16,329 nucleotides of DNA from a virus (lineage: Duplodnaviria; Heunggongvirae; Uroviricota; Caudoviricetes), in the IMG/VR virus record IMGVR_UViG_3300044798_000244, positions 64,001 through 80,329 of that record, one strand, 5' to 3'. Position numbers and translations under genes: made by a program. The notes below the pieces were generated by a model that saw only the letters and a list, made by a program, of their open reading frames with translations, was not told the origin of the DNA and did not search any database. Each line of letters begins with the position of its first letter. Within the stretch, counting starts at the first letter, position 1. Of the stretch, positions 758 to 16,329 are shown in pieces.

Positions 758-1476
758 GAGACGTATCTAGCAAAAGGCCTATCTAAAATGTTGACAGGAT
801 GGGCTTTAGTCACTCGGTTGAACACTCGGATTTGATTCTCCTTGAGGTCACAGAGCATAATCTGACCTCTCCGTAGAAACATCTCGGTCCTGAGTAGCTG
901 TGCCAACCAATACGCATCGGTCAAGTCAGTCCCTGGACCATCATACTCCTCAACCTTTGTTGGATTCTTAATTCCAACTTTCTTCGAGATGGTCTTGAGA
1001 AGAGCTTTGGGGAAGAAGACACTTCCTTTTTGATCTATAATAGGCAGCTGGTCAACCATATCCTTCTTCAGGGCATGGCCATTAGCGGCCCCAAACAGCT
1101 TCACACTATCTGGATCGTGGAGCCGAAGAAGTCCACCCCCGGCCAGGAACATATTCTTTACGATTCCGGTCTGTTCTGCTATTTCAGCAAATCTAGTGGA
1201 CTGACTCGCATAGCCGTAGTCTTCGATAGCAACAGTAAAAGCATCTGTAGGCCAGACTTGATTAGTTAGGAAGTGGAGGATTTCTTTGATCCGGAAGAAG
1301 TGCTCAGTCTCATGATCGAGATCCTTCGGCATCTTATAGAACAGGCAGTGCTTCGGATCAATAGCTTCGAACTTCTTCACATCTATCATGTAGGAATAGT
1401 TCACTACAGATCCAGAATCATCAAGCTCGACAAATCCAAAATGTCGCAGAGAAATATCAAGTCCGAATATTCGCAT
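751..1476 (-). CDS. ruvC: RuvC-like Holliday junction resolvase (long, 241 aa)
   Basis: RNase H-fold acidic motifs: IFGLD (first Asp), VAIEDY (Glu), helix EIAEQTGIVK, and DLTDAY (paired Asp). TGATG overlap with the recA stop. Confidence 0.8.
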   Translation of the reverse strand: MRIFGLDISLRHFGFVELDDSGSVVNYSYMIDVKKFEAIDPKHCLFYKMPKDLDHETEHFFRIKEILHFLTNQVWPTDAFTVAIEDYGYASQSTRFAEIAEQTGIVKNMFLAGGGLLRLHDPDSVKLFGAANGHALKKDMVDQLPIIDQKGSVFFPKALLKTISKKVGIKNPTKVEEYDGPGTDLTDAYWLAQLLRTEMFLRRGQIMLCDLKENQIRVFNRVTKAHPVNILDRPFARYVSC

Positions 1477-2606
1477 CAGAACACCCTCTGCTTACGAGGT
1501 TCCATTCGATACACCTCTTCCCAGACCTTAGCAACATACTTCCGAAGATTGATCTCCTGATTATGCTCTTCTATCCATCCAACCCACTCCATCATTCGTT
1601 TAGAGACGAACTTAGCAGTACCACCACAGCTACAAGGACCTTCAATCGTTTGGATTGCTCCACACTTGTCACAGACCGGAATCTTTACCTGGCAGGTCAT
1701 CTTGTAGGACTCTTCGATTCCTGTATCATTTTCAGCCAGGAAGGAAAGACTTGATACAATATCATCCATTCCATAATCAAAGAGAATTTTGAACTTCCCT
1801 GACCGAAACGGAGGAGCAACCTTGTTCTTAGAAACTTTGAACTTCACCCAAATACCTATCTCTTTGTTGGCGGAGTTGGTTACTTTTTTATCGTGCTTCA
1901 GATATAGCCGGACTGAAGTGTAGAACTCAGGTCCCCGACCACCTGTAGTTGTCTCACCTCCAAAGGGAGATCCAACATCATCTCGAGTCTGATCAATGAT
2001 AAAGAGAGTCATCCCTTTATGAGCTAAGTCGTGAGTGTATTTCCGAAGACCAAGTCCAATCTGCTTGGGACGGGTTGCACCATATCCTTGTTTGTCCATG
2101 GACTTTTCGGCTTCCCAGGCGGTCGGAAGAACAGTGAGGGTATCAACAACCCCGAACTTCGGTTTACGAGTGGGCAATTCAAGAATGCCTCCGAGCCAAC
2201 CATCGAACAACTCTTCGACAGTTGTTGGCTGATCACCTTTCTTATACGACTCACCTTTACTCTTGACATACCCATAATAGAAGTTCTCATGATGACAATC
2301 CAGACCATAAATCTTAGCAAAGGTCGGATCGAATGTATGCTCAACATCAGCTAAAAACGCATGATTTCCAGATCGTAAAGCATATCCCATTGCAGTCGTC
2401 GCAATCACGGTCTTAGCAGTACTGGCCCCACCATAAACTTGTATGATCCTTCCTACAGGAAAACCACCAGGAGACCGATTTGAAACTGCTAAATCCAGAA
2501 CTTGGCACCCTGAAGAGCACCAATTAGTAACTTCTGGAAGATCAACAAAGTCAACAGCTTCTGCCGTCTTCTTGATTTCTTGTGCAAGATCTTGTGTCTC
2601 ACCCAT
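1476..2606 (-). CDS. recA: RecA/UvsX-family recombinase
   Basis: SSGCQVLDLAV..GGFPVGRI, Walker A variant GGASTAKT, DVEHTFDP (catalytic Glu), Walker B VVDT, IDQTR, TTGGRG.EFY.SVRL and KNKVAPPF signature. Confidence 0.95.
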   Translation of the reverse strand: MGETQDLAQEIKKTAEAVDFVDLPEVTNWCSSGCQVLDLAVSNRSPGGFPVGRIIQVYGGASTAKTVIATTAMGYALRSGNHAFLADVEHTFDPTFAKIYGLDCHHENFYYGYVKSKGESYKKGDQPTTVEELFDGWLGGILELPTRKPKFGVVDTLTVLPTAWEAEKSMDKQGYGATRPKQIGLGLRKYTHDLAHKGMTLFIIDQTRDDVGSPFGGETTTGGRGPEFYTSVRLYLKHDKKVTNSANKEIGIWVKFKVSKNKVAPPFRSGKFKILFDYGMDDIVSSLSFLAENDTGIEESYKMTCQVKIPVCDKCGAIQTIEGPCSCGGTAKFVSKRMMEWVGWIEEHNQEINLRKYVAKVWEEVYRMEPRKQRVF

Positions 2607-4301: not shown

Positions 4302-5276
4302 TTATACTGTTCGAAGAGGCGGAAGGTATGGATTCTCGGCAAAGCATGCTTGAGCCACAAGGGCCCCCAATTGAGCCCTACTTCCGTAAAAAACACTCAC
4401 TGAAAAGATCCGAATCAGATGTGCCAGGTCAAGTGCCTCCCTCGCATCAGAAGAGGTAACCAGCTTTTTATACAAATATCCTAAAATGGACTTCCTAACG
4501 ACTTCGGGTTCCTCTGCGATCTTATCAAAGGTCTGAATAATCACTTGCCACTTCTGCTGACGCACCAGAGGAGAACCATACATCAATTTGCATATCTCAA
4601 TGACCTGGACATCTTTCTCTGTGCCCTTCACCAGCATCTGAAATGCTTCATCTACATTAGTAATGTCCTTGAGTGCTTCCAGAGATACCAGAGCTGCTCT
4701 CGGTGAACCTTCACAAGTACAAGCAATGCCCTGGATGATCTGTGGGTCTACTTTGAAGCCCTTCTTCTGACAGGCACAGTCCAAAAGAGCAATGATCTTC
4801 AATTCACCTAACTTCGAGACCTCATATGGTGTACATCGATTCCGGACAGTAAGAATAAGACTATTCGGATCAGTAGTACAAAGGACGAAGTAGCAGTGAA
4901 CAGGTGGCTCCTCAAGTACCTTCAGAAAAGCTTCCTGGGCAGCCTTGGTCAACTCATGACACTCGTCAATGATGTAGGTTTTAGGCTTGCCTCCCAGAGA
5001 GGACAATCCGGCCTGGGCACTAATCTCTCTTACAGTATCAATACCTCTGGTGTTGGCTGCGTTGTACTCAAAGATGCTATTCTCATCTGACCCAAACTCA
5101 TGGGCCAGAATTCGCCCGAGAGTAGTCTTTCCACATCCAGAAGGTCCAAAGAAGAGAATGGCATGGGGACGAGTGGGGCTCTTGAGCATCTTCGCAAGAG
5201 CCCCAACAGTCGTTTCATTTCCAACCACTTCGGCAAGACAGGTCGGACGAAGTTCTTGATACAATCCTACTGACAC
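4302..5276 (-). CDS. dnaX: DnaX (gamma/tau)-like AAA+ clamp-loader subunit
   Basis: LYQELRP..LAEVVGN, Walker A GPSGCGKT, Walker B IIDECH, LKVLEEPP, arginine-finger NRC (SRC-like). Start reassigned to GTG at 5276 because AAGGAG lies 7 nt upstream; the track's 5330 start overlaps the previous gene. Confidence 0.9.
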   Translation of the reverse strand: MSVGLYQELRPTCLAEVVGNETTVGALAKMLKSPTRPHAILFFGPSGCGKTTLGRILAHEFGSDENSIFEYNAANTRGIDTVREISAQAGLSSLGGKPKTYIIDECHELTKAAQEAFLKVLEEPPVHCYFVLCTTDPNSLILTVRNRCTPYEVSKLGELKIIALLDCACQKKGFKVDPQIIQGIACTCEGSPRAALVSLEALKDITNVDEAFQMLVKGTEKDVQVIEICKLMYGSPLVRQQKWQVIIQTFDKIAEEPEVVRKSILGYLYKKLVTSSDAREALDLAHLIRIFSVSVFYGSRAQLGALVAQACFAENPYLPPLRTV

Positions 5277-5287
5277 GCATGTACTCC

Positions 5288-6316
5288 TTAGACTTTCTCG
5301 TGCTTTGTCAACTGATGGCACGAGGGGCATAAGTTGTATTCGTGAGTAACTCTACCAGCAATGCTCTGAAGGGCCCGGGCACCAGAGGTGGACATCTTCG
5401 AAGAGTAAGTACCAACCCTCGTGATGCTGTTCCAAATATCGTACATTGTTTTTGGGCCTGCCCCACCATTTTGTGTGGCAGCTTCAGCAACGATCTCCTT
5501 CTGTGTCCGGACCGGGATGCCAAACTTGCGAAACAGGCTGGCCAGCGTATCAGGAACATGGCCTTCAACTCCGACCTCGGTCAGATGCTTAATACGATCA
5601 AACTCACCATTGAGAGCCCCCAACGAGCCTTGCGTAGCATTTCGGACCCAAGGACTAATAGGCTCGTTACTATCACTGCGGTGTGACCACTGGCTGATGT
5701 TCTCATATACAATGGCACCGTTGACACAGATGGCCCGACAAATGTACGGAGCGATCTCGATCTTGTGTTCTCCGATAATGGAATTCTGAAGGTCAATTCC
5801 ACCATGAAGAACATCGCCGGTGATGGTTTCAAATACGCGATCAGTAACAATAGAAATGCGTGAGTGATCCAAGCGACTGAACACCTGATGATAACCCAGG
5901 ACGTGATCGGCACCAATGATCTCCTCAGCAGCACCAAGGAGTTCAGTGTTGTTGTAGTACTGCGGACGATTGGCATTACAGCCAACAACTACACCATCGT
6001 AAAGAAAGAACCTAAGTTTACCATTAGCACCACCTCGATACCAGTGGTCCAAGTTTCGGAACAGAAGGTCTGTCGGGCACTTCCTGCTGTAAGACTCAGG
6101 AATACCAACACCTCGAGCGGCTTCTTGCAGACCTTCGGTCGTCATCTGGTGTTCCTTTTTGTTGAGGGTAATGACTGGGGCACCTTTATCATCTGTCTTG
6201 AAGAAGATCTCCGACTTCAATCCAAGCTCCGCATCTACATGTGTGAGCCCCTCAGTAGGTTCAAGGATCTTCGTCACTTGTTCCCGGGTCATGAGGTTAA
6301 GTACTGGCTGTGACAT
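5288..6316 (-). CDS. DUF932-like protein
   Basis: GGIDLQNS....H...I...ICRAICVNGAI and YDIWNSIT resemble the DUF932 'NS.DG...RLVC.NG' core as recalled. GGAGG lies 10 nt upstream of the ATG. Confidence 0.7.
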   Translation of the reverse strand: MSQPVLNLMTREQVTKILEPTEGLTHVDAELGLKSEIFFKTDDKGAPVITLNKKEHQMTTEGLQEAARGVGIPESYSRKCPTDLLFRNLDHWYRGGANGKLRFFLYDGVVVGCNANRPQYYNNTELLGAAEEIIGADHVLGYHQVFSRLDHSRISIVTDRVFETITGDVLHGGIDLQNSIIGEHKIEIAPYICRAICVNGAIVYENISQWSHRSDSNEPISPWVRNATQGSLGALNGEFDRIKHLTEVGVEGHVPDTLASLFRKFGIPVRTQKEIVAEAATQNGGAGPKTMYDIWNSITRVGTYSSKMSTSGARALQSIAGRVTHEYNLCPSCHQLTKHEKV

Positions 6317-6768: not shown

Positions 6769-7224
6769 TTGAGTCCCTGCAATGGCCACCTGATACGCCT
6801 TTATCTTGGGTGGCCATTGCAATTCGTGACTAATCGACCACATTGTCTCTGTAACATTCACTCCCATCGCCTCGGGACAAGTTGTAACGAACAGCCCTAG
6901 ATGCTCAGCCTGAAAGGCTTCTATCTCCCGTCGAAGAACCTTCCGAGCGGAGCCCTGCCAGTAGAGACAACATTGTTTCTGTCTGTCTGACCACTCAGGG
7001 TGCATCATTCCCATTCTCTTCAGATGCTTCTCTATATCAAAGACGTTCCAAATGACCCACGTTGGTTTGGTCCAATCGAAAATTTGTGTAACCAGAGGAC
7101 ATCCTGGTGGACATGAAGATCTCTTTCCAAAGTTAGGACACCCCTTCGGATGACCAGGATATGATTTGTAGCACAGATCTCTAACGGAAGGATCTATAAT
7201 CAGATGTACCTCTGCATATGGCAT
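6754..7224 (-). CDS. DUF2284-like predicted metal-binding (Cys-rich) protein
   Basis: VRDLC...GCPNFGKRSSCPPGCP, QCCLYWQ and CPEAMGVNVTET match the recalled DUF2284 pattern (C..CPNYG...CPP; EA.GIDV..T). TGATG coupling to the polA stop and GAGGTG upstream favour ATG at 7224 (alternative GTG at 7227). Confidence 0.65.
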   Translation of the reverse strand: MPYAEVHLIIDPSVRDLCYKSYPGHPKGCPNFGKRSSCPPGCPLVTQIFDWTKPTWVIWNVFDIEKHLKRMGMMHPEWSDRQKQCCLYWQGSARKVLRREIEAFQAEHLGLFVTTCPEAMGVNVTETMWSISHELQWPPKIKAYQVAIAGTQLSSY

Positions 7225-9956
7225 CACTTCACCTCAACCCAGTTCTTAACTTGTCGGCAGGTTCCACACTGCAATGAATGAGTAATCTGCTTGCGACCTT
7301 CAGACAAATCTTTTTTGTCTTTCGAGTGACCCATCGGTCCATGCACGTGACAGAAGTCACAATCACCAAATTCAAGGTTCGTAAGATCGTACCAGTTCGT
7401 AATTCCCACTTCCCATTCAACTCCAAGGGGAACGATTCCTTGCCAATCAAATCTCTTAGCACACATGATCTCAGTCACAATTTGCACCATTTCCTCAGCC
7501 TCACTCGGCACTGTATCAATCGTGACACTATCATGGATTTCGAAGACGGGTCTTGATCGAAGACCCCGCTCAGCAAAAACTTTCTCTATCTGAATCAACG
7601 CTCCCACCATCAGATGGAACGCTGGACCTTGGATAGGAGTATTGTAGAGTTTGTTAATGGTGAGAGGCCCGTACCGACGGAAGCCGGACATACCTTCTAC
7701 ATATCCACAGTCCCGATACATCTCAATCGTTCGGCGTTGCCAAGTCCTGACACCATAGAACTCATTCCAGAACTTATCCTGAACGAAGGCGATGTGACCT
7801 TCGGGGGCTGTAGGAAACTTGCGGGCTATCGAATCAGCTGTAGCTCCATAGAAAGATGCGAAGATGAAACCATTCTTACTCTCATATCTCTCATCACTAG
7901 TAATTAGGTCAAGAGGCTTCCTATAAATTTCACCTGCCCATCTCTTATGTGTATCAACACCTTGGATGATCTGTCGTGTGAGCTCCTGGTCCTTCGAGGC
8001 CATTGCGATCACACGCACTTCCAGACCGCTATAGTCTACTTCGAGGAGAATGTTTCCAGGAGTCGGAATGATAATGCGGCGGAACTTCTTCAGCTCCTTA
8101 TCATGCTTAAAAACATTTTGGATGTTGGGTGAGTCGGAGCTTGATCTATAAGTATCAGCAATATGTAAATTGAAGATAGGATGAACCAAGCATGCTGTAT
8201 CCATCAACCTTCGATAGTTGGCAGCTCTTTTTAGAAGGGTACCACATTTCCTATACCGGAACAGATTCTTAATTAGCTCTTTAACATTCTCATTATCTGT
8301 TTTCTTCTGAATCATCTCCAAGGCTTCTACATCTGCAGCTCCTCTCTCAGTCTTAGTCTTCTTGAAAAGAGGTACCTGATACACCCCATACAGAATTTTG
8401 CCCATTTGCGAGGTGGACTCAGGATTAAATCCTTTGAAGCCTCTGGTATCCACATTCTCTTGTAAGTACTGAACAACACCAGGAGAGCTCGCCATGGCTC
8501 TAACGCGAGACTTCTTCTCCTTCTCATACTTCTCTTCAAGGTCTTTCAGGACATTGACATCAATCAAAACACCCCTTCTTCGCAGCTCAACCAACACCAT
8601 CGAGCCCCTCTGGAGAAGGTCATTGAATTCAAGAAGACGACCCTCTCTCTGGAGGCGGGGCAACTGGTGGTAGTAAGACATCAATGTATACCGAGCATCC
8701 CAACAGTTGTAGTGAAAGATTTTTAGCGGGTCTTCCTTACGAAGATCTTTACAATTGACCATTTCCTTGTAATCATGGCCACACATCTCAAAGACCTGGA
8801 ACGCCAAGGAAGTCGTAAGTGTATTGCAGTTCAGAACGTGCTGAGCCAGCATCGTATCATGTATGAAGTTTGACATCGGCTGATGGAGATACTCGCGATT
8901 CCACAGCTCTTCCATGTTCAGATTCTGCACAAGTTTTGGAGTTTTGCTGGTCAAGAAACGTTTCCATGCCTCAAGTATATAGCCCTGCTCAACAAGATTA
9001 AAATACTTCTGTCCTGTGGCAGGATTGACCAGACCAAATGGGATGAAATAACCTAGATCTACCTTGTTAGTAAAGCTAATAGACAGAAGCTCGGCCTCAG
9101 GTTCGAAGGGCGTAAGTCGGAAGGTTTCGTAGTCATAACCTACTGGGTCGACTGATTCGCACATCTCATTGACAGCCCGAATCGCTTCATTCGTATCTGA
9201 GAGCATCTTGTTGCCTGCTTCGGTCAGAGGCTCTATCGGAGTCTTGCCTAAGTAGCTCAAGGCTTTCGCTATGTCAAACACAAAGAGATTTTCATCGTTC
9301 GGCACACCAGGCTTGTTCTTCCTTCGAAGAAAAAATGCAGGATGGTAGGAAGACGCAACCCAGCAATTGAACTTTCTGCTGTACACAACCAGACCATGCA
9401 TCATTCCGGCCGAGAACCTTGCGAGCTTCTTAATAGATTTTGGCTTCTCGAGGATAGAATTGATAGCCAGATCACCTAAGCAAATAATCAGCTCAGGCTT
9501 CGTCTCTTCAATATCTTTGATGAGGTTTTGGCGGCAGCACTGGATCTGGACAGGTGTTGGATCTATCGAAGAATAGCAGCGGGCGATGTTGGTTCGGACG
9601 CAATCCTTGTCCAGGTCTACTCCAACATAAGAGCAGTGGCGTCTCAGTAGTTCTCCTGATGCTCCAACGAAAGGTACTCCAGCCTTATCTTCATCTTTGC
9701 CCGGACAAAGGCCAATGAATAAGATCTTCTTGTGGCCTTCTCCAAACCTCTTGATTCGAGGGCTACGGCAAGAAGTAGATAATCCGCAAAAATTGCAGTC
9801 ATATACCTTCGGTGCAGCTTCGTCCTTCTTGGAACCATCTCTCCGAGGGTTTGGAGATCCGGCAGGACGACGACCTTGTTTGGATTGAAATCTCTCAGGA
9901 TTCTCTTTCTGAAAGACCTCAAGTGGGCTGGGGAAAAATGATTTCTGCTCTGACAT
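7224..9956 (-). CDS. polA: Family A DNA polymerase with N-terminal family-4 uracil-DNA glycosylase-like domain and 3'-5' exonuclease (SPO1-like architecture)
   Basis: UDG4: CNFC, GLCPG.DED..G.PFVG.SG.LL, TNIARC, QCC, YHPA. Exonuclease: YDYET, QNLNMEE, YNCWD. Polymerase motif A VDYSGLEVR, motif B R..SKNGFIFASFYG, motif C EIHDS. Confidence 0.95.
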   Translation of the reverse strand: MSEQKSFFPSPLEVFQKENPERFQSKQGRRPAGSPNPRRDGSKKDEAAPKVYDCNFCGLSTSCRSPRIKRFGEGHKKILFIGLCPGKDEDKAGVPFVGASGELLRRHCSYVGVDLDKDCVRTNIARCYSSIDPTPVQIQCCRQNLIKDIEETKPELIICLGDLAINSILEKPKSIKKLARFSAGMMHGLVVYSRKFNCWVASSYHPAFFLRRKNKPGVPNDENLFVFDIAKALSYLGKTPIEPLTEAGNKMLSDTNEAIRAVNEMCESVDPVGYDYETFRLTPFEPEAELLSISFTNKVDLGYFIPFGLVNPATGQKYFNLVEQGYILEAWKRFLTSKTPKLVQNLNMEELWNREYLHQPMSNFIHDTMLAQHVLNCNTLTTSLAFQVFEMCGHDYKEMVNCKDLRKEDPLKIFHYNCWDARYTLMSYYHQLPRLQREGRLLEFNDLLQRGSMVLVELRRRGVLIDVNVLKDLEEKYEKEKKSRVRAMASSPGVVQYLQENVDTRGFKGFNPESTSQMGKILYGVYQVPLFKKTKTERGAADVEALEMIQKKTDNENVKELIKNLFRYRKCGTLLKRAANYRRLMDTACLVHPIFNLHIADTYRSSSDSPNIQNVFKHDKELKKFRRIIIPTPGNILLEVDYSGLEVRVIAMASKDQELTRQIIQGVDTHKRWAGEIYRKPLDLITSDERYESKNGFIFASFYGATADSIARKFPTAPEGHIAFVQDKFWNEFYGVRTWQRRTIEMYRDCGYVEGMSGFRRYGPLTINKLYNTPIQGPAFHLMVGALIQIEKVFAERGLRSRPVFEIHDSVTIDTVPSEAEEMVQIVTEIMCAKRFDWQGIVPLGVEWEVGITNWYDLTNLEFGDCDFCHVHGPMGHSKDKKDLSEGRKQITHSLQCGTCRQVKNWVEVK

Positions 9957-9965
9957 TACTAATTC

Positions 9966-11045
9966 CTATGATCTGGTCTGCACCAAATACTTAAATTGTG
10001 TACCTTCGAAGAGGACAATCCCAGCATCAGGAAAATATGAAAACTGCCAACATTTTCCCATCGCATCGAGCAACAGGGAAGGATTCACTCGGAACTCAAA
10101 AGTGTTCGGACTCGTATTGTTCTTGACAGTGGTATCCTCACTTAGCTTACGAGTTGGCTGTGCTCCTGAAGAGGTCTTAGACACAGACAGTGTACCAACC
10201 TTCTCACTAGTAACAGTGAATACCAACTCCTTATCAACTGGAGGGACGTCTTTCAGAAAAGTTAGATGACGATCAAGAACAGCGGGGAAGTCGGAGGACA
10301 TCTCCATCTTCACAGCCGACTCGGTCTTCGGGAAGAAAACCGACAGGTCCCGATACTCACCAACATGTGCACAGCCCCACAGCTCAGCCCCTCCTTCCAA
10401 AGTCACGCGAAGGGTTCCACCACTACTCGCACCTGGGTTGGAACGGAACATAATATCTTTGATCTGACCTTGGACGCGACTCAGAATCTCAATCATCTTA
10501 GTTGAGATACTAGCAGTCAGATTCACAGGCTTCTCCATCTTCCATTGAAGCACACGGAACCGGTCACATCCCCACACTACATCACCATTGATATACACAC
10601 CACACATTACACCCTGAGACTCATCTTTAGCAGCACCATAATGGCAGAAGTCAAGTCCTCGAACGAACTCGGCTATACTAGGAACTTCGACCTTCGTCAT
10701 TCCATCAGTAGGAACAGATGCTGGCTTCGGATCATGGAAGGTAAACTCACTCTTAATGGTACCTGTTTTGATCACAAGCTTCTTCAGCTCATCCCCAACA
10801 ACCTCCAGCTCAATCTCTTCATCCTTGATACTCTGGATTAGATGATACACAGGTTCTGCCTGGACAGCTAATTTCAAGTCCAGCCCTTCGGGAAGGGGTG
10901 AGTCCAACCAAAGTGCCCCGTCCGTTGCTTGAACTCTTGTTCCATAGAAGGTGAAGCATTGATATTCAGGAACGAGTTGATTATTACCTACAACAGGCCA
11001 TACGCGAGATAAACTACTAAGAAGAGCTAATCGGTTAACACGCAT
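9966..11045 (-). CDS. dnaN: DNA polymerase III beta-type sliding clamp
   Basis: 359 aa. M.VNR..LL..L..V..VV.N...VP start, VQATDG, and AAKDESQGVMCGVY...GCDRFRV (equivalent to 'S.DE.RP.L.GV...ATD..RL'). AGGAG 6 nt upstream. Confidence 0.85.
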   Translation of the reverse strand: MRVNRLALLSSLSRVWPVVGNNQLVPEYQCFTFYGTRVQATDGALWLDSPLPEGLDLKLAVQAEPVYHLIQSIKDEEIELEVVGDELKKLVIKTGTIKSEFTFHDPKPASVPTDGMTKVEVPSIAEFVRGLDFCHYGAAKDESQGVMCGVYINGDVVWGCDRFRVLQWKMEKPVNLTASISTKMIEILSRVQGQIKDIMFRSNPGASSGGTLRVTLEGGAELWGCAHVGEYRDLSVFFPKTESAVKMEMSSDFPAVLDRHLTFLKDVPPVDKELVFTVTSEKVGTLSVSKTSSGAQPTRKLSEDTTVKNNTSPNTFEFRVNPSLLLDAMGKCWQFSYFPDAGIVLFEGTQFKYLVQTRS

Positions 11046-11057
11046 TGAAAACTCCTA

Positions 11058-12167
11058 TTAAAAGAAAGACTTAGTTCGATAGAAAGGTTTTCGCTCATGT
11101 ATTCTGGGATCTTTAAGCAATTCTTCATAATAGTAAGTGTTAACTTTGAACCGCTCAAGCAGGTCGACTTTGAGCCTCGCAAGATCAGCACCGGCCCTAC
11201 GGAAGTACTCCTCAACACGCTCAATCTCTTTAGGTGAACAACTAAGTGTGTAGTGGGGGTTCTTAGTAGCTTTTATCAACGACACATCTGACACAGAATA
11301 GATTATTGGGGGTTGGAAGTAATCAAAATCTTGTTTCTCTTCTGAGAAATGCGGCGCCATTACATTTCCGTAAGCCGCATGCTTAAGCCAAGTTGTCGAA
11401 TCGACTGACCAAAAAGGATAGCGAATCATCAACTGATGGGACGTAACGGCGAACCCATGTACTTTACAATCAGGCTTCTTCTTCCACAAGTACTCAAAGG
11501 CTGGATCAGCGAAGTTTACGAATTGGTTAAGAGTAACACCACCAGCCACACCACCAATGCCTATGTAGTCATACTCGTCCACCATTCGCTTCCAGTGTTT
11601 GATATCCTCACCAAAATGGTACACTGGTATTGGACGGAGGCCTTTGGACTCCATACACATCTGGTTCTTCCAGGACTCATCTGCGTTGTAGATAATATCC
11701 AGGTTCACGTATGCCATCAGTTGGTTAGCATACTTCTTGATGAACTCGATATAGTTGTCCAGATACTGCCGAACATCAGAATTGTCGTTGAATGAGAAGT
11801 CTGCGAAGAACTGAGGAGCTCCACTTACATGCTTGGAGTAGTGAATCCGTTGGTTAGAATCAAGACGGCCCTGAAACTCATCTCCAGTGAATGTGACGTT
11901 GCCATCCTCATCAGTCTTCTTCTCAGTCTTCACGGTGGCCCCGGTGTTGATAAGACCGACCTGGGCATTCAGGAGTGAGTGTGCACCTGAATCCAAGAAA
12001 ATCTTTATTGTTGGATTTGCATCAAGAAGCTTCGTTATCTCCTTGGTCTTCCAAAAAGTTTCCAGTGTGGTGACCCGACCCTCTTTCAAGATACCAAGGT
12101 TTACGACTTTGATATCTATTCTCCCTGCAGAAAGGAAGTTAGCAAGATGGACAAATTGTGTTGACAT
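11058..12167 (-). CDS. dpdA: DpdA: TGT-fold 7-deazaguanine DNA transglycosylase
   Basis: FLDSGA (catalytic Asp), YVNLDII, GLRPIPVYH.GED, YDYIGIGGVA, KVHGFAVT, and PFWSVDSTTW (second Asp). Phage DpdA-like, with no bacterial-TGT CxCxxC zinc motif. Clustered with queC/E/F. Confidence 0.85.
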   Translation of the reverse strand: MSTQFVHLANFLSAGRIDIKVVNLGILKEGRVTTLETFWKTKEITKLLDANPTIKIFLDSGAHSLLNAQVGLINTGATVKTEKKTDEDGNVTFTGDEFQGRLDSNQRIHYSKHVSGAPQFFADFSFNDNSDVRQYLDNYIEFIKKYANQLMAYVNLDIIYNADESWKNQMCMESKGLRPIPVYHFGEDIKHWKRMVDEYDYIGIGGVAGGVTLNQFVNFADPAFEYLWKKKPDCKVHGFAVTSHQLMIRYPFWSVDSTTWLKHAAYGNVMAPHFSEEKQDFDYFQPPIIYSVSDVSLIKATKNPHYTLSCSPKEIERVEEYFRRAGADLARLKVDLLERFKVNTYYYEELLKDPRIHERKPFYRTKSFF

Positions 12168-12168
12168 A

Positions 12169-12519
12169 TTATCCCTTCAGATTTCCTTCCTGGTACATCT
12201 TCTCGTAAAGAATGTAATGTTCTTTTATGATTTGCTTCCGTCCAAACACTGCATGAAGGCTGATCCCATTGCTTTTGTTATGGTGTTTATAGCACAGAAC
12301 AACACCATTTTCTGGATCGAACAGAATATGAACAAAACGCTTCCAATTTTCTTTCGTAATACCATACTTCTGAATAAGATAAGATAAGCTATCCAAATGA
12401 TGAACTTGGGGTCGATACTTGGATCCACACAAATAACACTGCTTAGATGTTTTTAGAAGGGCATTCTTCCATTCGGCATACTCTGAGGATCCCACTAAAA
12501 TGGAAGACAACTGAATCAA
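12169..12519 (-). CDS. Small HNH endonuclease
   Basis: CYLCG....QVHHLD...PENGVVLCYKHH: ββα-metal HNH core with Zn ligands. TTG start overlaps the queC TGA (TTGA). Confidence 0.85.
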   Translation of the reverse strand: MIQLSSILVGSSEYAEWKNALLKTSKQCYLCGSKYRPQVHHLDSLSYLIQKYGITKENWKRFVHILFDPENGVVLCYKHHNKSNGISLHAVFGRKQIIKEHYILYEKMYQEGNLKG

Positions 12520-13340
12520 CCGTGAAGCTCACTCTGCTCCTGTTGATAGTCCAGAGCAGACTTGATGTCCTCTTTGTGGTCTTTATTGAACTCATCGACC
12601 ACCTTCTTCATATTCTTAACACCTTGATCCCACTCCTCCATAGTTAGAGCTGGATCTTTTGCTCCAGTTTTGAAAAATGCTTCACACCTTTCTATACAAG
12701 TGCAGCAACGAAGGCACGGACGATCTCTTTGTCCGTTATAACAACTCCAGGTAAGTTCAAGAGGGGCACCAATCTCTATACCCATCTTCGCAATGTCTGT
12801 CTTGGTCATATTGACAAAAAGAGAACGAATTTCGATCCCTTCAAAAGTACCAAGAACAGCAGCATTACCTATAGCATTCACAAAATCAGACCGGCAATCG
12901 GGGTAGTTTGTGTTGTCGCCAGCATGGTTGCCATAATACACAGCTGTACAACCATGACTCTCAGCAAAACCAACAGCAATAGATAACATGATCCCATTTC
13001 GGAACGGAACCACCGTCTGTCTCATATTTGCTTCTTCATAGTGACCTTCAGGAATAGCCTCTCCGGTCTTTAAGAGATTAGAAGCCAACAGACTCTCAGG
13101 AACTTCTTGATTACATGTGTTAGGAATATACTTGCTCACATTCACAGGAAGATCATACAAGTACACAGGCACATTAAGCACATCACAGACATCCAGCAAT
13201 GCTCTACGTTCTTTTTTGTTGTGCTTACTACCATAGCTGAAATTTAAGACCAAGACCTCCTTGCCCTCGACCAGCAACTTCTTAAGAAGAGTTACGGAAT
13301 CCATCCCCCCACTTACGATTGTGACAACTCGTTCACTCAT
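12516..13340 (-). CDS. queC: 7-cyano-7-deazaguanine (preQ0) synthase
   Basis: SGGMDS PP-loop, TVVPFRNGIMLSIA, YPDCR, TWSCY, and C..C.TC Zn motif. AGGAG 9 nt upstream. Confidence 0.97.
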   Translation of the reverse strand: MSERVVTIVSGGMDSVTLLKKLLVEGKEVLVLNFSYGSKHNKKERRALLDVCDVLNVPVYLYDLPVNVSKYIPNTCNQEVPESLLASNLLKTGEAIPEGHYEEANMRQTVVPFRNGIMLSIAVGFAESHGCTAVYYGNHAGDNTNYPDCRSDFVNAIGNAAVLGTFEGIEIRSLFVNMTKTDIAKMGIEIGAPLELTWSCYNGQRDRPCLRCCTCIERCEAFFKTGAKDPALTMEEWDQGVKNMKKVVDEFNKDHKEDIKSALDYQQEQSELHG

Positions 13341-13368: not shown

Positions 13369-13399
13369 AGTATATTCTACTGTCAACATGGGTTGTCAA
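13369..13399 (-). promoter_or_regulatory. Possible promoter for queC-HNH-dpdA-dnaN-polA (tandem TTGACA)
   Basis: Minus strand reads TTGACA (13399-13394), acccatg, TTGACA (13386-13381), gtagaa, TATACT (13374-13369). The spacer from the first -35 is 19 nt, which is non-optimal. Confidence 0.35.
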
Positions 13400-14082
13400 G
13401 AGTTAAGAAACATCTTCACCTTCTCAATCACTTGATCAGGATCCTTTAGTTCGTGTTCCCAGATTATCAAGGTCTTGTAGCCTTGAGACTCAAACAACTT
13501 GATTCTCTCTTGTTCGTGTTGTTCATTCGGAATACCTGTTACTTCTTGGGAGTGCCAGTAGTCACCAAATAACTCGATGATTAGCTTTTCCTCTTCGTTA
13601 ACAAAATCAGGGCACTTGCCTGCGATGATTTTCTGTCCGTCACCAGTGAACTGGAAACCAGAACAAGCTCTCTCGAGAAATTCTTGAAGAAGCTTCTCAA
13701 GTTTGTTCTGAGAAACTTGTCTGGAGAGCATCTGCTTAGCTACATACTCAGAATTCTGCCAAAGTTGTTTTGAACTTTTTTGATGCTTTTGTCGAATTTC
13801 GGGTCGTTTGTTTGGGTTTTTTTCTCCCCTGTTCGCATCTCCGATCTTCTTCCGAGTTTCCAAAGAAGGATTTCTGAGAGCATCACCTTTTTTCTTACAA
13901 ATTTCAGGGGATTGATGTTTTCCTCGAAGAGAATCACCTATCTTCTTGCAAATTTCAGGAGAAAGAGTTTTTCCTCGAAGGGCATCACTTTTCTTCTTGC
14001 ACGTTTCAGGAGAGAAGTAGCTATCACCCCTTTTGGTCTTGCAAATAGCACATTGACAATCTTCTTTATGCACTCTTCCCAT
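13396..14082 (-). mobile_element. Free-standing putative homing endonuclease: NUMOD3-like repeats plus Vsr/DUF559-like nuclease domain
   Basis: N-terminal H-x3-C-x-C-x2-C, repeats SPE(T/I)CKK(K/I).D.LRG, and C-terminal NKLE..L...L, PDFV, IIELFGDYWH, QGYKTLIIWEHEL. Confidence 0.8.
13880..14012. repeat. Coding 51-bp tandem repeat (about 2.6 copies, plus a degenerate copy near 13835) encoding the NUMOD3-like units
   Basis: g(c/a)atcac...ttctt(a/g)ca..tttcagg recurs at 13880, 13931 and 13982; period 51 bp = 17 aa. Confidence 0.9.
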
Positions 14083-14095
14083 GGTTTGTAATTTC

Positions 14096-15043
14096 CTAAG
14101 AATTTAGAACCAGATCCCAAAGAGCATCTGTTCCAAATTTTCGACCATAGCTATCAGGATCCTCATCAGTAGAAAATTGAACAGTTGAAACTTGTGGAAA
14201 GAACACCTGAAGATCTTCTGCTTCTTCAAGTGAATAAAAATAAGCATCCCCATCTCGGGCGACAATCACTTTTTCAGGATGTACGCTTATAAGCAGATTC
14301 TTCTGTCGGTCGGTTATGTGAGAACCAAAAGTAGCAAGAGAGTTACGCCCCAATCTCCAGGAATCAAGAATTCCTTCTACAAGTACGATTGGTCCCTTCT
14401 GGACATCTATCATGTCCCAACGATACAAAAAATCATTTACACGCCCTGGGGCGGTCTTATACTTCACCTGAGCTCGTCTGGTAAGATCTGCTGCTTGATA
14501 ACTGACCAATTCTCCTTTGAAGAACACAGGAATTATGAGTCGGTTCATGCACTCCCCAACAGTGCACACACCACACTGATACTCTATCAATATATCTCGT
14601 GTGTAGCCCCTCAGGTTGAGGTACCAATCAAGTAGAGGGAAATCTAACTGCCATGTTACTGGATCAAAATACTTAGGGAGAGTGATGGGGCCGGTCGGGG
14701 CAACTTTCTGCTCCGGTTGAGGATCGCTCTCCCCCCAAAGATCTTGAACTTGGGTCTCTGAATCAACTTCGAATGTGAACCCAAGGTCGCGTATCTGCTC
14801 AGCAACCACCTCCATCGCCTGCTTAGTGATTCGAGCTAAGAGGTAATCAAATGAACCTGTTGCACTGCACTTCCAACAATTGTAACTAAGAGATTCCTTG
14901 AAGACACCTAGATGGTTGCTTTGATCGTCACAGAAAGGGCACTGAATCTGAATCGTGTTCTGCGAGACGTTTTTTCCTTCAAGCCAAAACGGAATATCGT
15001 ATTTTTCAAGAAGGGCAATGATGATTTTACTATTATCTTCCAT
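14096..15043 (-). CDS. dnaG: DnaG-type DNA primase (Zn finger plus TOPRIM)
   Basis: CPFC....H....YNCWKC zinc-binding domain, [19 protein letters not shown] and VARDGD TOPRIM motifs. Confidence 0.92.
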
Positions 15044-15548
15044 CTTCGTGGTGATTCCACACGTCCATGATCATTTTATTGTATTGTGGAAGAGTTTCTT
15101 GTGGCAAAATAACAGTTGGGTTTATAGAAATCCCACCTCGGGGGAAAAAGTCTCCTCGTACCATAATAATGTGAGGGAGCATAACCATGTAGAGATCAAA
15201 TGCGATCCGACTGGTGACACTCTCGTGAAACTCACCATGATTCCGAAATGAGAACAGATACAGCTTCAGCGCCTTGCTCTCAATCAATTTCTTGTTTGGT
15301 ATGTAGAGAATCTTGAATTTTGCGAAGTCTGGCTGGCCGGTTTTTGGACAAAGACTGGTAAATTCAGGGCACTCGAGCTCAACAACATAAGGAATAGAAG
15401 GCCACTTGTTATCAAAAGTTTCGAGGACAGCATCTTCAGGTCGGGTTGGATACTGGGTCTGACCAGATCCGAGTTGCTGTAGATCTTTTCCTGCTTCCTT
15501 CCAGGTCTCATCCAGGTGTGCAACACCATTTTCAGGATATCCAGACAT
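15033..15548 (-). CDS. queF: NADPH-dependent preQ0 reductase, unimodular (type I) QueF
   Basis: [14 protein letters not shown] (catalytic Cys/Asp), QueF motif [14 protein letters not shown]...FHE and PRGGI. ATG at 15548 has GGAGG upstream; the track's 15566 start is the alternative. Confidence 0.95.
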
Positions 15549-15553
15549 TCTTG

Positions 15554-15853
15554 TCAATGCCTCCATCTGTATGAATTGTTTTGGTACTCTCGTGCGTCTC
15601 CTTGGGAGGGAAATGGGGGATCTATCAGCCCTTCGTACCTTGTATGGTAACTCGATAGCTGAATAAACTCTGAGATTCGTGCTGCTGGCCAGCCTTTCTC
15701 TCTCAGTTTGACTAAGAATGGCTGAAGCTCTTCATCATATCCATCTTTCCCAAGAAGGTCATACAAATCCAGCAGAGCTCGGAGATACTCTACTACTGCT
15801 TTGGGATCCTCGTAGTCGACTTGTGCTGGTTGAGGAAACGTTTCAGCGTTCAT
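15554..15853 (-). CDS. Hypothetical protein (99 aa) between queE and queF
   Basis: Exactly fills the gap and overlaps the queE stop region by 11 bp. No family motif recognised. Confidence 0.7.
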
Positions 15854-16329
15854 TTTTCTCTCCTGATCCGGGCCAAAGAATCTTATGTAGTTGCAATGAG
15901 TATTGAACTGGACGTGACAGCTTCGGAGAGAACTCGATCAGCTTCTCAGCGAGTTGTGTCGCCCAACAAAGCTCTGGACCATAAGGTGTCATCTTAACCG
16001 CAGGACTGAAGACCATCTTAGCTTTACAGGATTTATAACATTTAAGAACATCACAAGCCCTCAACCAGTCTCCTCCATCCGAGATTACAAACTTCACTAC
16101 GTCCTGCTCTTGAAGTAGAGGAGCATTCCCTTGGTATGCCAGTTGATCTTCCATTCCGGAGGATGGAAGCTTGTAATCAACTACAAATCGAACGCTGCCA
16201 CAAGTACCACTTCGGATGCGAGGAAGATAGCACAGTCCATATCGAAGAAGGGAAATCGATCCATTAGTCTCAACTGTTACGTCTTTTCCCTCGTGGACCA
16301 AAAGAGCAAGCAGAGTTGCGACCTCCTCA
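15843..16329 (-). CDS. queE: 7-carboxy-7-deazaguanine synthase (radical SAM), C-terminal part; runs off the right edge
   Basis: The frame stays open to the edge (EEVATLLALLVHEGKDVTVETNGS). Motifs VETNG, DYKLPSSG, VKFVI, FSP and SLQLHKILW. The CxxxCxxC motif lies outside the window. Confidence 0.9.
   Translation of the reverse strand, partial: EEVATLLALLVHEGKDVTVETNGSISLLRYGLCYLPRIRSGTCGSVRFVVDYKLPSSGMEDQLAYQGNAPLLQEQDVVKFVISDGGDWLRACDVLKCYKSCKAKMVFSPAVKMTPYGPELCWATQLAEKLIEFSPKLSRPVQYSLQLHKILWPGSGEKNER

Follow-up and report, generated by a model that had tools for sequence, protein, structure and literature searches.

Why should a phage enzyme that exchanges bases in DNA end in nearly the same residues with which the replicative polymerase of that phage begins? 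This question is raised by a stretch of 16,329 nucleotides (nt), hereafter the window, which forms the final 16.3 kb of the 80,329-bp IMG/VR record IMGVR_UViG_3300044798_000244, a metagenome-derived sequence of an uncultured Caudoviricetes phage that is estimated by CheckV to be about half complete. Three consecutive genes of the window are concerned, namely dpdA, which encodes a DNA 7-deazaguanine transglycosylase (DpdA) of the tRNA-guanine transglycosylase (TGT) superfamily, the gene of a DnaN-type sliding clamp, and that of the polymerase. An initial annotation of this DNA had proposed that both termini are clamp-binding peptides and that DpdA rides the phage clamp. Our comparison of the window with about 170 related phage loci (from IMG/VR and from cultured phages) suggests that tethering of DpdA to the clamp through its terminal peptide is the best-supported reading, to which we give a probability of roughly 0.6 on the basis of sequence comparisons.

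The features in question are the following (positions refer to the window):

11058..12167, minus strand: dpdA, TGT-superfamily DNA 7-deazaguanine transglycosylase, 369 amino acids (aa); phrog_887, E=6.5e-41, and AlphaFold2 fold
11061..11096, minus strand: C-terminal tail of DpdA, residues 358-369, predicted coil and putative clamp-binding peptide (TKSFF at 11061-11075)
9966..11045, minus strand: DnaN-type beta sliding clamp, 359 aa; phrog_947, E=1.4e-23
7224..9956, minus strand: replicative polymerase, 910 aa; Pfam UDG (uracil-DNA glycosylase) 3.9e-19, DNA_pol_A_exo1 5e-6, DNA_pol_A 1.9e-56
9933..9947, minus strand: N-terminal peptide QKSFF of the polymerase, residues 4-8, putative clamp-binding motif
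9798..9926, minus strand: short conserved helices of the polymerase, residues 11-23 (9888-9926), and low-confidence linker, residues 24-53 (9798-9887)

Two similar termini on either side of a clamp gene

Both peptides are found where the initial annotation had placed them. The polymerase (open reading frame (ORF) 7224-9956, minus strand) starts with MSEQKSFF, QKSFF being encoded at 9947-9933, and this start is unambiguous because an in-frame stop lies four codons before the ATG and there is no alternative upstream start. DpdA ends with FYRTKSFF (TKSFF at 11075-11061), directly followed by TAA TAG. The clamp ORF (9966-11045) is indeed located between the two genes, starting 12 nt past the DpdA stop and lying 9 nt ahead of the polymerase start. 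The claim that KSFF marks no other terminus stands as well: a six-frame scan of the window detected three KSFF, i.e. the two termini and one in a non-coding frame, and no comparable terminus was found among the other proteins of the full 80,329-bp record (~125 ORFs).

The consensus of bacterial clamp-binding peptides is Q-L-[SD]-L-F. The polymerase peptide Q-K-S-F-F fits this consensus at four of five positions (Q1, S3, the hydrophobic residue 4 and F5), as counted position by position without scoring by a model. The initial annotation had also drawn an analogy to the PCNA-interacting peptide (PIP) box, which did not hold: the clamp (359 aa, three domains) is homologous to DnaN, so that the comparison with PIP boxes and PCNA is not applicable, and the peptide resembles the Q-L-[SD]-L-F class. 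The PIP box pattern itself (Q-x-x-[LIMV]-x-x-[FY]-[FY]) was tried and rejected, the polymerase having its Q three residues ahead of F-F and lacking an aliphatic residue at position 4, and DpdA having no Q at all.

The identity of DpdA is evident from several sources. With the annotated DpdA of cultured phages (Iggy, Vid5, Seurat-like and others) the protein shares 30-35% identity (tblastn), and its AlphaFold2 model has a predicted local distance difference test (pLDDT) value of 89. The top 27 fold matches of this model in the PDB are all TGTs, as are 48 of the 50 matches listed. Three aspartates, D59 (within D-S-G), D157 and D256, do not vary across an alignment of 56 sequences and are candidates for the catalytic aspartates of the TGT active site. 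Past residue 357 the model has no secondary structure, and its last block has a pLDDT of 66, so that the terminal peptide is located on a predicted coil. Residues 66-130 (window 11778-11972) represent an insertion of ~65 residues (pLDDT 64-79) in the DpdA clade of the window; it is absent from the DpdA of the Queuovirinae, with which no tblastn alignment starts before residue 132.

For the clamp, a profile of its family (alignment A2, 67 sequences) matches solved beta clamps of the PDB over all three domains (E=9e-36, positions 3-312), and the N-terminal, central and C-terminal Pfam domains of DNA_pol3_beta are detected in 35, 19 and 17 of the 67 family members, respectively. Towards its C-terminus the clamp aligns only weakly with E. 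coli beta, and no match to the window clamp was found in cultured phages by tblastn.

The polymerase combines a family-4 UDG-like domain, a 3'-5' exonuclease and a family A polymerase (Pfam). In its AlphaFold2 model, a coil at residues 1-10 (pLDDT 62) is followed by helices at residues 11-23 (pLDDT 86) and by a segment with a pLDDT of 50-65 (residues 24-53), and the folded UDG domain starts at about residue 54. The disordered-looking linker of about 45 aa that had been described behind the peptide is thus of low confidence at residues 24-53, but not at residues 11-23, which are occupied by the short conserved helices. Up to the first Cys of the UDG-like domain, the linker comprises 10-50 residues and is poorly conserved (alignment A3). 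At the opposite end of the protein, past the family A domain, there is an extension of ~50 aa (window 7224-7380), which is rich in Cys and His and resembles a zinc ribbon (C-x2-C ... C-x2-C).

Conservation of the peptides and their occurrence with a clamp

Conservation of the peptide among DpdA homologues, close and distant, was borne out: 63 of 72 homologues with identities of 35-83% end in [FL]F, and all 72 possess a hydrophobic pair within their last three residues. The family logo reads [KR]-[S/R/T/P]-[F/L]-F-COOH, and the preceding 8-10 residues vary freely. Among other ORFs of the related loci an [FL]F end occurs in 7 of 1306 (0.5%); the match at the DpdA terminus exceeds chance. One homologue (L012:10001-12352) has 783 aa, i.e. 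double the usual length, and still ends with NKSFF; an intein or some other insertion may be present in it.

The polymerase peptide is similarly conserved, as had been expected. Its F7 and F8 are retained in at least 90% of the relatives (alignments of 40 and 21 sequences, 20-84% identity), and [FL]F occurs within 11 residues of the start in 59 of 68 polymerases, compared to 7.5% of other ORFs when the same permissive criterion is applied to them.

The IMG/VR loci were gathered in two ways, 80 via DpdA and 79 via a full-length polymerase alignment. The order dpdA-clamp-polymerase is present in about 72 of the 80 DpdA-gathered loci. Polymerases of the window's clade start with M..Q-x-[SA]-F-F and its DpdAs end with [KR]-x-[FL]-F. 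In a second, large clade the polymerase starts with M-x-G-F-F, and DpdA ends with W-P-W-P-F, basic residues and then G-F-(F/G/R)-L, G-L-F or G-F-F. With respect to the presence or absence of a Gly before the aromatic pair, polymerase and DpdA agree in 34 loci and disagree in 4, and small lineages change both peptides jointly (PALF with PNLF, MELF with NMLF, VSFF with QSLW). This co-variation is suggestive.

About 18 of the 79 polymerase-gathered loci possess a clamp and have no DpdA within 7 kb upstream; the N-terminal FF is kept in ~15 of these 18, which indicates that the polymerase peptide follows the clamp and not DpdA. Conversely, one locus (L054) encodes a PHP/DnaE-type polymerase without such an N-terminus, yet the tail of its DpdA reads KGFGL. 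This polymerase type, which is similar to Pol III alpha, replaces the UDG-PolA protein beside the same clamp family and DpdA in two loci (L039:11457-14846 and L054:12245-16474).

Five of the seven background ORFs that end in [FL]F can be identified, and they belong to four gene families, namely an N6/N4 DNA methyltransferase (L018:5101-5844, ending with LKIFF), an S-adenosylmethionine-dependent methyltransferase (L065:6758-7612, KNSFF), a DnaB-like helicase (L079:3894-5480, LQSFF) and a clamp loader (L020). These identified proteins read like a typical list of clamp clients. A protein of 303 aa without an assigned family ends with QKGFF in two loci (L006:3110-4021); like the two methyltransferases and the helicase, it may be a further client of the clamp. 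As whole families, the clamp loaders, single-stranded DNA-binding proteins (SSB), primases, QueC and UvsX proteins of the related loci do not carry the motif.

At the DNA level the window has no close relative among cultured phages, in which blastn of the 5-kb region found no match; their loci were reached through DpdA matches and record annotation only. The order dpdA-clamp-polymerase is nonetheless shared by phages known to have deazaguanine in their DNA, the genomes concerned being those of JenP2, Seurat, Iggy, Vid5, R7M, pVco-14 and M39, and also of RHEph04, Ssp-JY38, BcepGomr and a Stenotrophomonas phage. The DpdA proteins of cultured phages end as follows:

JenP2 (9g-like): LQDLFDE
Seurat: VMELF
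Iggy: IQELF
Vid5: IQELF
R7M: IQELF
pVco-14: TQGLF
M39: TQGFF
Stenotrophomonas phage: QMELF
RHEph04: EQRLF
Ssp-JY38: DPVLF
BcepGomr: QQGLFV
ZHS: KQSLW (its polymerase starts with VSFF)
ART: QMELLG (clamp 3 kb away)

With the exception of ZHS, the polymerases of these phages (eleven, ART and Vid5 being left out) have no UDG domain and start with M-[RSP]-x(2-5)-G-[FLM]-F-W. This N-terminal peptide of the Queuovirinae type is encoded at L087:5676-5720, L088:5581-5625, L089:6458-6500, L091:5619-5660 and in other cultured loci, and no mention of the G-[FLM]-F-W peptide was found in the phage DpdA papers examined. A peptide at the N-terminus of the polymerase and one at the C-terminus of DpdA, with a clamp gene in this order, are thus found again where the N-terminal domain of the polymerase is unrelated.

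According to the initial annotation, the DpdA peptide should be conserved only where a phage clamp is co-encoded. Our counts are 62 DpdAs with clamp and motif, 25 with clamp and without motif, 7 with neither, and none with the motif and without a clamp. The clamp-less cases comprise the Mycobacterium phages Cracklewink and Quesadilla, the Bacteroides phage BS162P1, and IMG/VR genomes, two with a completeness of 95-96% and two partial. The expectation is therefore upheld as far as none of the seven clamp-less DpdAs carries the motif, but these amount to two independent contrasts, and 25 of 87 clamp-linked DpdAs lack the motif.

Proposed docking on the phage clamp and its alternatives

Under the tethering of DpdA that we favour, both KSFF peptides would be short linear motifs by which the two proteins dock on the DnaN-type clamp of the phage itself. 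In the polymerase the motif is situated at the very start of the protein, with a flexible linker between it and the UDG-like domain, and in DpdA at the very end, on a coil behind the TGT-like barrel. Loaded onto primed phage DNA by the clamp loader of the phage, the clamp would hold the polymerase for processive synthesis and, via its second cleft or once the polymerase has left, also DpdA. The enzyme held in this way could then swap guanine for preQ0 or preQ1 supplied by the neighbouring QueE, QueC and QueF. Binding in the cleft, the co-replicative timing and the preference for phage DNA are what we infer in this sequence of events. The window encodes the additional proteins that would take part, namely a clamp loader and, along with DpdA, enzymes of preQ0/preQ1 synthesis:

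4302..5330, minus strand: clamp-loader AAA+ subunit; phrog_5846, E=1.4e-60, and Pfam DNA_pol3_delta2 1.8e-22
12516..13340, minus strand: QueC, preQ0 synthesis; Pfam QueC 7e-52
15033..15566, minus strand: QueF, preQ0-to-preQ1 reductase; Pfam QueF 5.6e-28, 97 bits against a cut-off of 27
15843..16328, minus strand: QueE-like radical SAM enzyme, truncated at the end of the window; phrog_2076, E=1.1e-10

Several observations weigh against a clamp-held DpdA. The DpdA peptide of the window, T-K-S-F-F, is without the canonical Q1 of the consensus (endings of its relatives include IQKRFF, TQKSFF and QELF), and the Queuovirinae-type peptides GFFW and QELF have nothing but the aromatic pair in common. 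The 25 clamp-linked DpdAs (of 87) without a clear terminal motif indicate that tethering is not universal, or that other contacts are used; among them is a sub-clade (L019, L038, L040, L044, L048, L050 and L072) whose polymerases nevertheless carry MGFF. On the DpdA tree the clamp-less proteins represent one outgroup clade and one long branch; the state of the clamp thus changes twice, and with two contrasts a sign test cannot reach significance and has no power. Likewise, when the co-variation of the peptides is corrected with a DpdA tree that was built without the tail, five independent pairs are left, in which DpdA follows the polymerase about three times, takes the opposite state in none and is unchanged about twice (p~0.25). 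Finally, the window clamp shows no Pfam clamp domain if its sequence is scanned alone, for which it is too divergent. A complex prediction for the clamp (A2) and DpdA residues 325-369 (A1) resulted in ipSAE values of 0.00 and 0.11, against a mark of 0.32; it was run without controls and is counted neither way. The proposal that DpdA rides the phage clamp is partly supported; it draws on the conservation of the peptide, the synteny and the clamp-less cases, and is weakened by the motif-less DpdAs, the two contrasts and a co-variation that is not significant.

The conservation of the peptides, their flexible context and their sharing by two replisome-linked enzymes point to a docking peptide and not to its partner, which could also be another common hub, such as the host beta clamp, the gp32-like SSB, the clamp loader or the replicative helicase. 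A pattern of Q-x-x-hydrophobic-F might suit the cleft of the host DnaN as well, and genes of a gp32-like SSB and a UvsX-like recombinase are located in the vicinity. We consider such a hub unlikely, however, as the motifs co-occur with a phage clamp gene between or beside both genes in ~85 loci, and the seven DpdAs of clamp-less phages are motif-less, which would be unexpected if the host clamp were the target. Moreover, hubs of the SSB type usually carry a tail themselves and do not receive one. Slightly less probable again is a coincidental resemblance, with aromatic pairs serving unrelated roles like capping of the fold, oligomerisation, tagging for degradation or contact with DNA. A shared core of merely two to four residues would agree with this, as would the quarter of clamp-linked DpdAs without the motif and the non-significant co-variation after tree correction. 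Yet both peptides are situated on low-confidence coil outside the folded domains and are far better conserved than the linkers, the arrangement recurs with a different type of polymerase, and the identifiable other proteins with this ending are all DNA enzymes.

The neighbouring position of the genes and the similarity of the peptides might alternatively reflect direct binding of DpdA and polymerase via their termini, without a clamp. This is improbable in view of the ~15 of 18 clamp loci that keep the polymerase peptide without a DpdA within 7 kb, and of the DpdA of L054, which keeps its tail beside a polymerase without such an N-terminus; besides, like peptides would be expected to compete for one site and not to pair. 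Least credible is a constraint at the nucleotide level, by which the DpdA ending would serve, as a U-rich signal, the translational coupling to the clamp gene that follows. The distance of 12 nt between the DpdA stop and the clamp start in the window, with AGGAG in between, would be compatible with coupling, but we rejected this explanation because the motif is also found with a clamp gene far downstream: the peptide is kept with the clamp start 140-2,200 nt away (L001, L005, L007 and L022-type loci) and despite intervening genes (Seurat, Iggy, Vid5, BcepGomr, RHEph04). Furthermore, the second-to-last position is occupied by either F or L, which agrees with selection at the protein level.

Genomic context, related systems and implications

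All genes of the window are on the minus strand. In the direction of transcription it contains QueE, a 99-aa ORF, QueF, a primase, a homing endonuclease, QueC, a 116-aa HNH-like ORF and DpdA, followed by the clamp, the polymerase with its UDG, exonuclease and family A domains, two small ORFs, a 342-aa protein and the clamp-loader AAA+ subunit, and finally by a gp32-like SSB, a 183-aa ORF, a UvsX/RecA-like recombinase, a RuvC-like resolvase and the start of an SbcC/Rad50-like gene. The QueF gene (15033-15566) carries the PHROG name GTP cyclohydrolase, while Pfam identifies it as QueF; with the latter identity the phage probably makes preQ1 besides preQ0. Neither FolE nor QueD was found in the window.

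The homing endonuclease (NUMOD3 and Vsr/DUF559-like; window 13396-14082) is free-standing and located between primase and queC. The 342-aa protein (window 5288-6316; phrog_1362, no Pfam match) has a C-terminal C-x2-C-H motif, its gene overlaps that of the clamp loader by 43 nt, and it is conserved in the closest loci only; it may represent an accessory subunit of the clamp loader. The UvsX/RecA-like protein (1476-2606, minus strand) has the C-terminus PRKQRVF (1476-1500). Its RKQRVF ending was considered as a third copy of the motif and dropped, given that close relatives keep a distinct basic pattern, R-K-x-R-[IVE]-[WFY] plus 0-2 residues.

The recruitment of clients to a clamp by a short motif is a known principle. 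Clients of the bacterial beta clamp include Pol III alpha, Pol II, Pol IV, UmuC, delta, MutS, Hda (with an N-terminal motif) and ligase, their motifs being Q-L-[SD]-L-F or Q-L-x-L-x-L. The system of the window resembles them in its DnaN-type clamp, in a hydrophobic peptide of 4-6 residues at a flexible terminus and in one motif common to several DNA enzymes, and QKSFF fits Q-x-S-hydrophobic-F. It differs in having F-F in place of L-F, in the missing Q of the DpdA copy, and in that clamp and clients are phage-encoded, their binding being putative here. A DNA base-exchange enzyme is on none of the lists of beta-clamp clients that the literature searches found.

A phage-encoded clamp that serves as a tool-belt is known from T4 and RB69, where the clients of gp45 are the C-terminal tails of the gp43 polymerase, gp55 and gp33; in both systems polymerase and other proteins bear the same terminal hydrophobic peptide. 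Unlike gp45, a PCNA-like trimer, the window clamp is a three-domain DnaN homologue, and the window polymerase is of the UDG-PolA type and not of family B, with its motif at the N-terminus instead of the C-terminus. Similarly, DNMT1 and UNG2 are DNA-modifying or repair enzymes coupled to replication by a short clamp-binding peptide, as is proposed here for DpdA. UNG2 carries its PCNA-binding peptide at the N-terminus of a uracil-DNA glycosylase, and the polymerase peptide of the window likewise precedes a UDG-like domain. Both eukaryotic enzymes, however, use PCNA and an 8-residue PIP box, a pattern absent from the window, and the type of clamp differs.

The nearest precedent is the T4 alpha-glucosyltransferase, whose interaction with gp45 was proposed from in vitro work and was not reproduced in pull-downs (bioRxiv 10.64898/2025.12.06.692756). 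There, as in our proposal, a phage enzyme that hypermodifies DNA would ride the clamp and act during replication, but that idea was not based on a shared terminal motif, and its chemistry is the glucosylation of 5-hydroxymethylcytosine.

DpdA1-type systems (9g, CAjan/Seurat, Iggy, Vid5) share with the window the enzyme family, the pathway genes and the order dpdA-clamp-polymerase, whereas the window DpdA represents a divergent branch, with 30-35% identity and an additional insertion. In the main phage DpdA papers (PMC6884629, PMC10516641, PMC10484667), the guanine exchange is called post-replicative and the genes are noted merely as adjoining polymerase genes; the word 'clamp' is absent from them. 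The initial annotation knew of no description of a clamp-coupled DpdA, and full-text literature searches that combined DpdA or 7-deazaguanine with clamp terms found none either.

An account of DpdA action has to explain why the levels of modification range from <0.1% to 100% of guanines, by what means phage DNA is recognised, and how modification stays abreast of replication and protects from restriction in time. Clamp tethering may be general to DpdA-type modification, including that of the 9g-like, CAjan/Seurat, Iggy and Vid5 phages, so that the phage clamp would be a tool-belt for DpdA and some DNA methyltransferases, and the exchange would be co-replicative and targeted to phage DNA in place of a free post-replicative scan; we put forward this generalisation tentatively, at somewhat less than even odds. 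Iggy, Seurat/CAjan, Vid5 and 9g-like phages, which are in culture and whose modifications have been measured, show the same tail and gene order, which makes the hypothesis directly testable. If true, the tether would provide a physical mechanism for the speed, processivity and self-targeting of DpdA. A DNA base-exchange enzyme would moreover be new among clamp clients, and it would constitute a new client class for the bacterial-type sliding clamp, paralleling DNMT1 and PCNA in eukaryotes.

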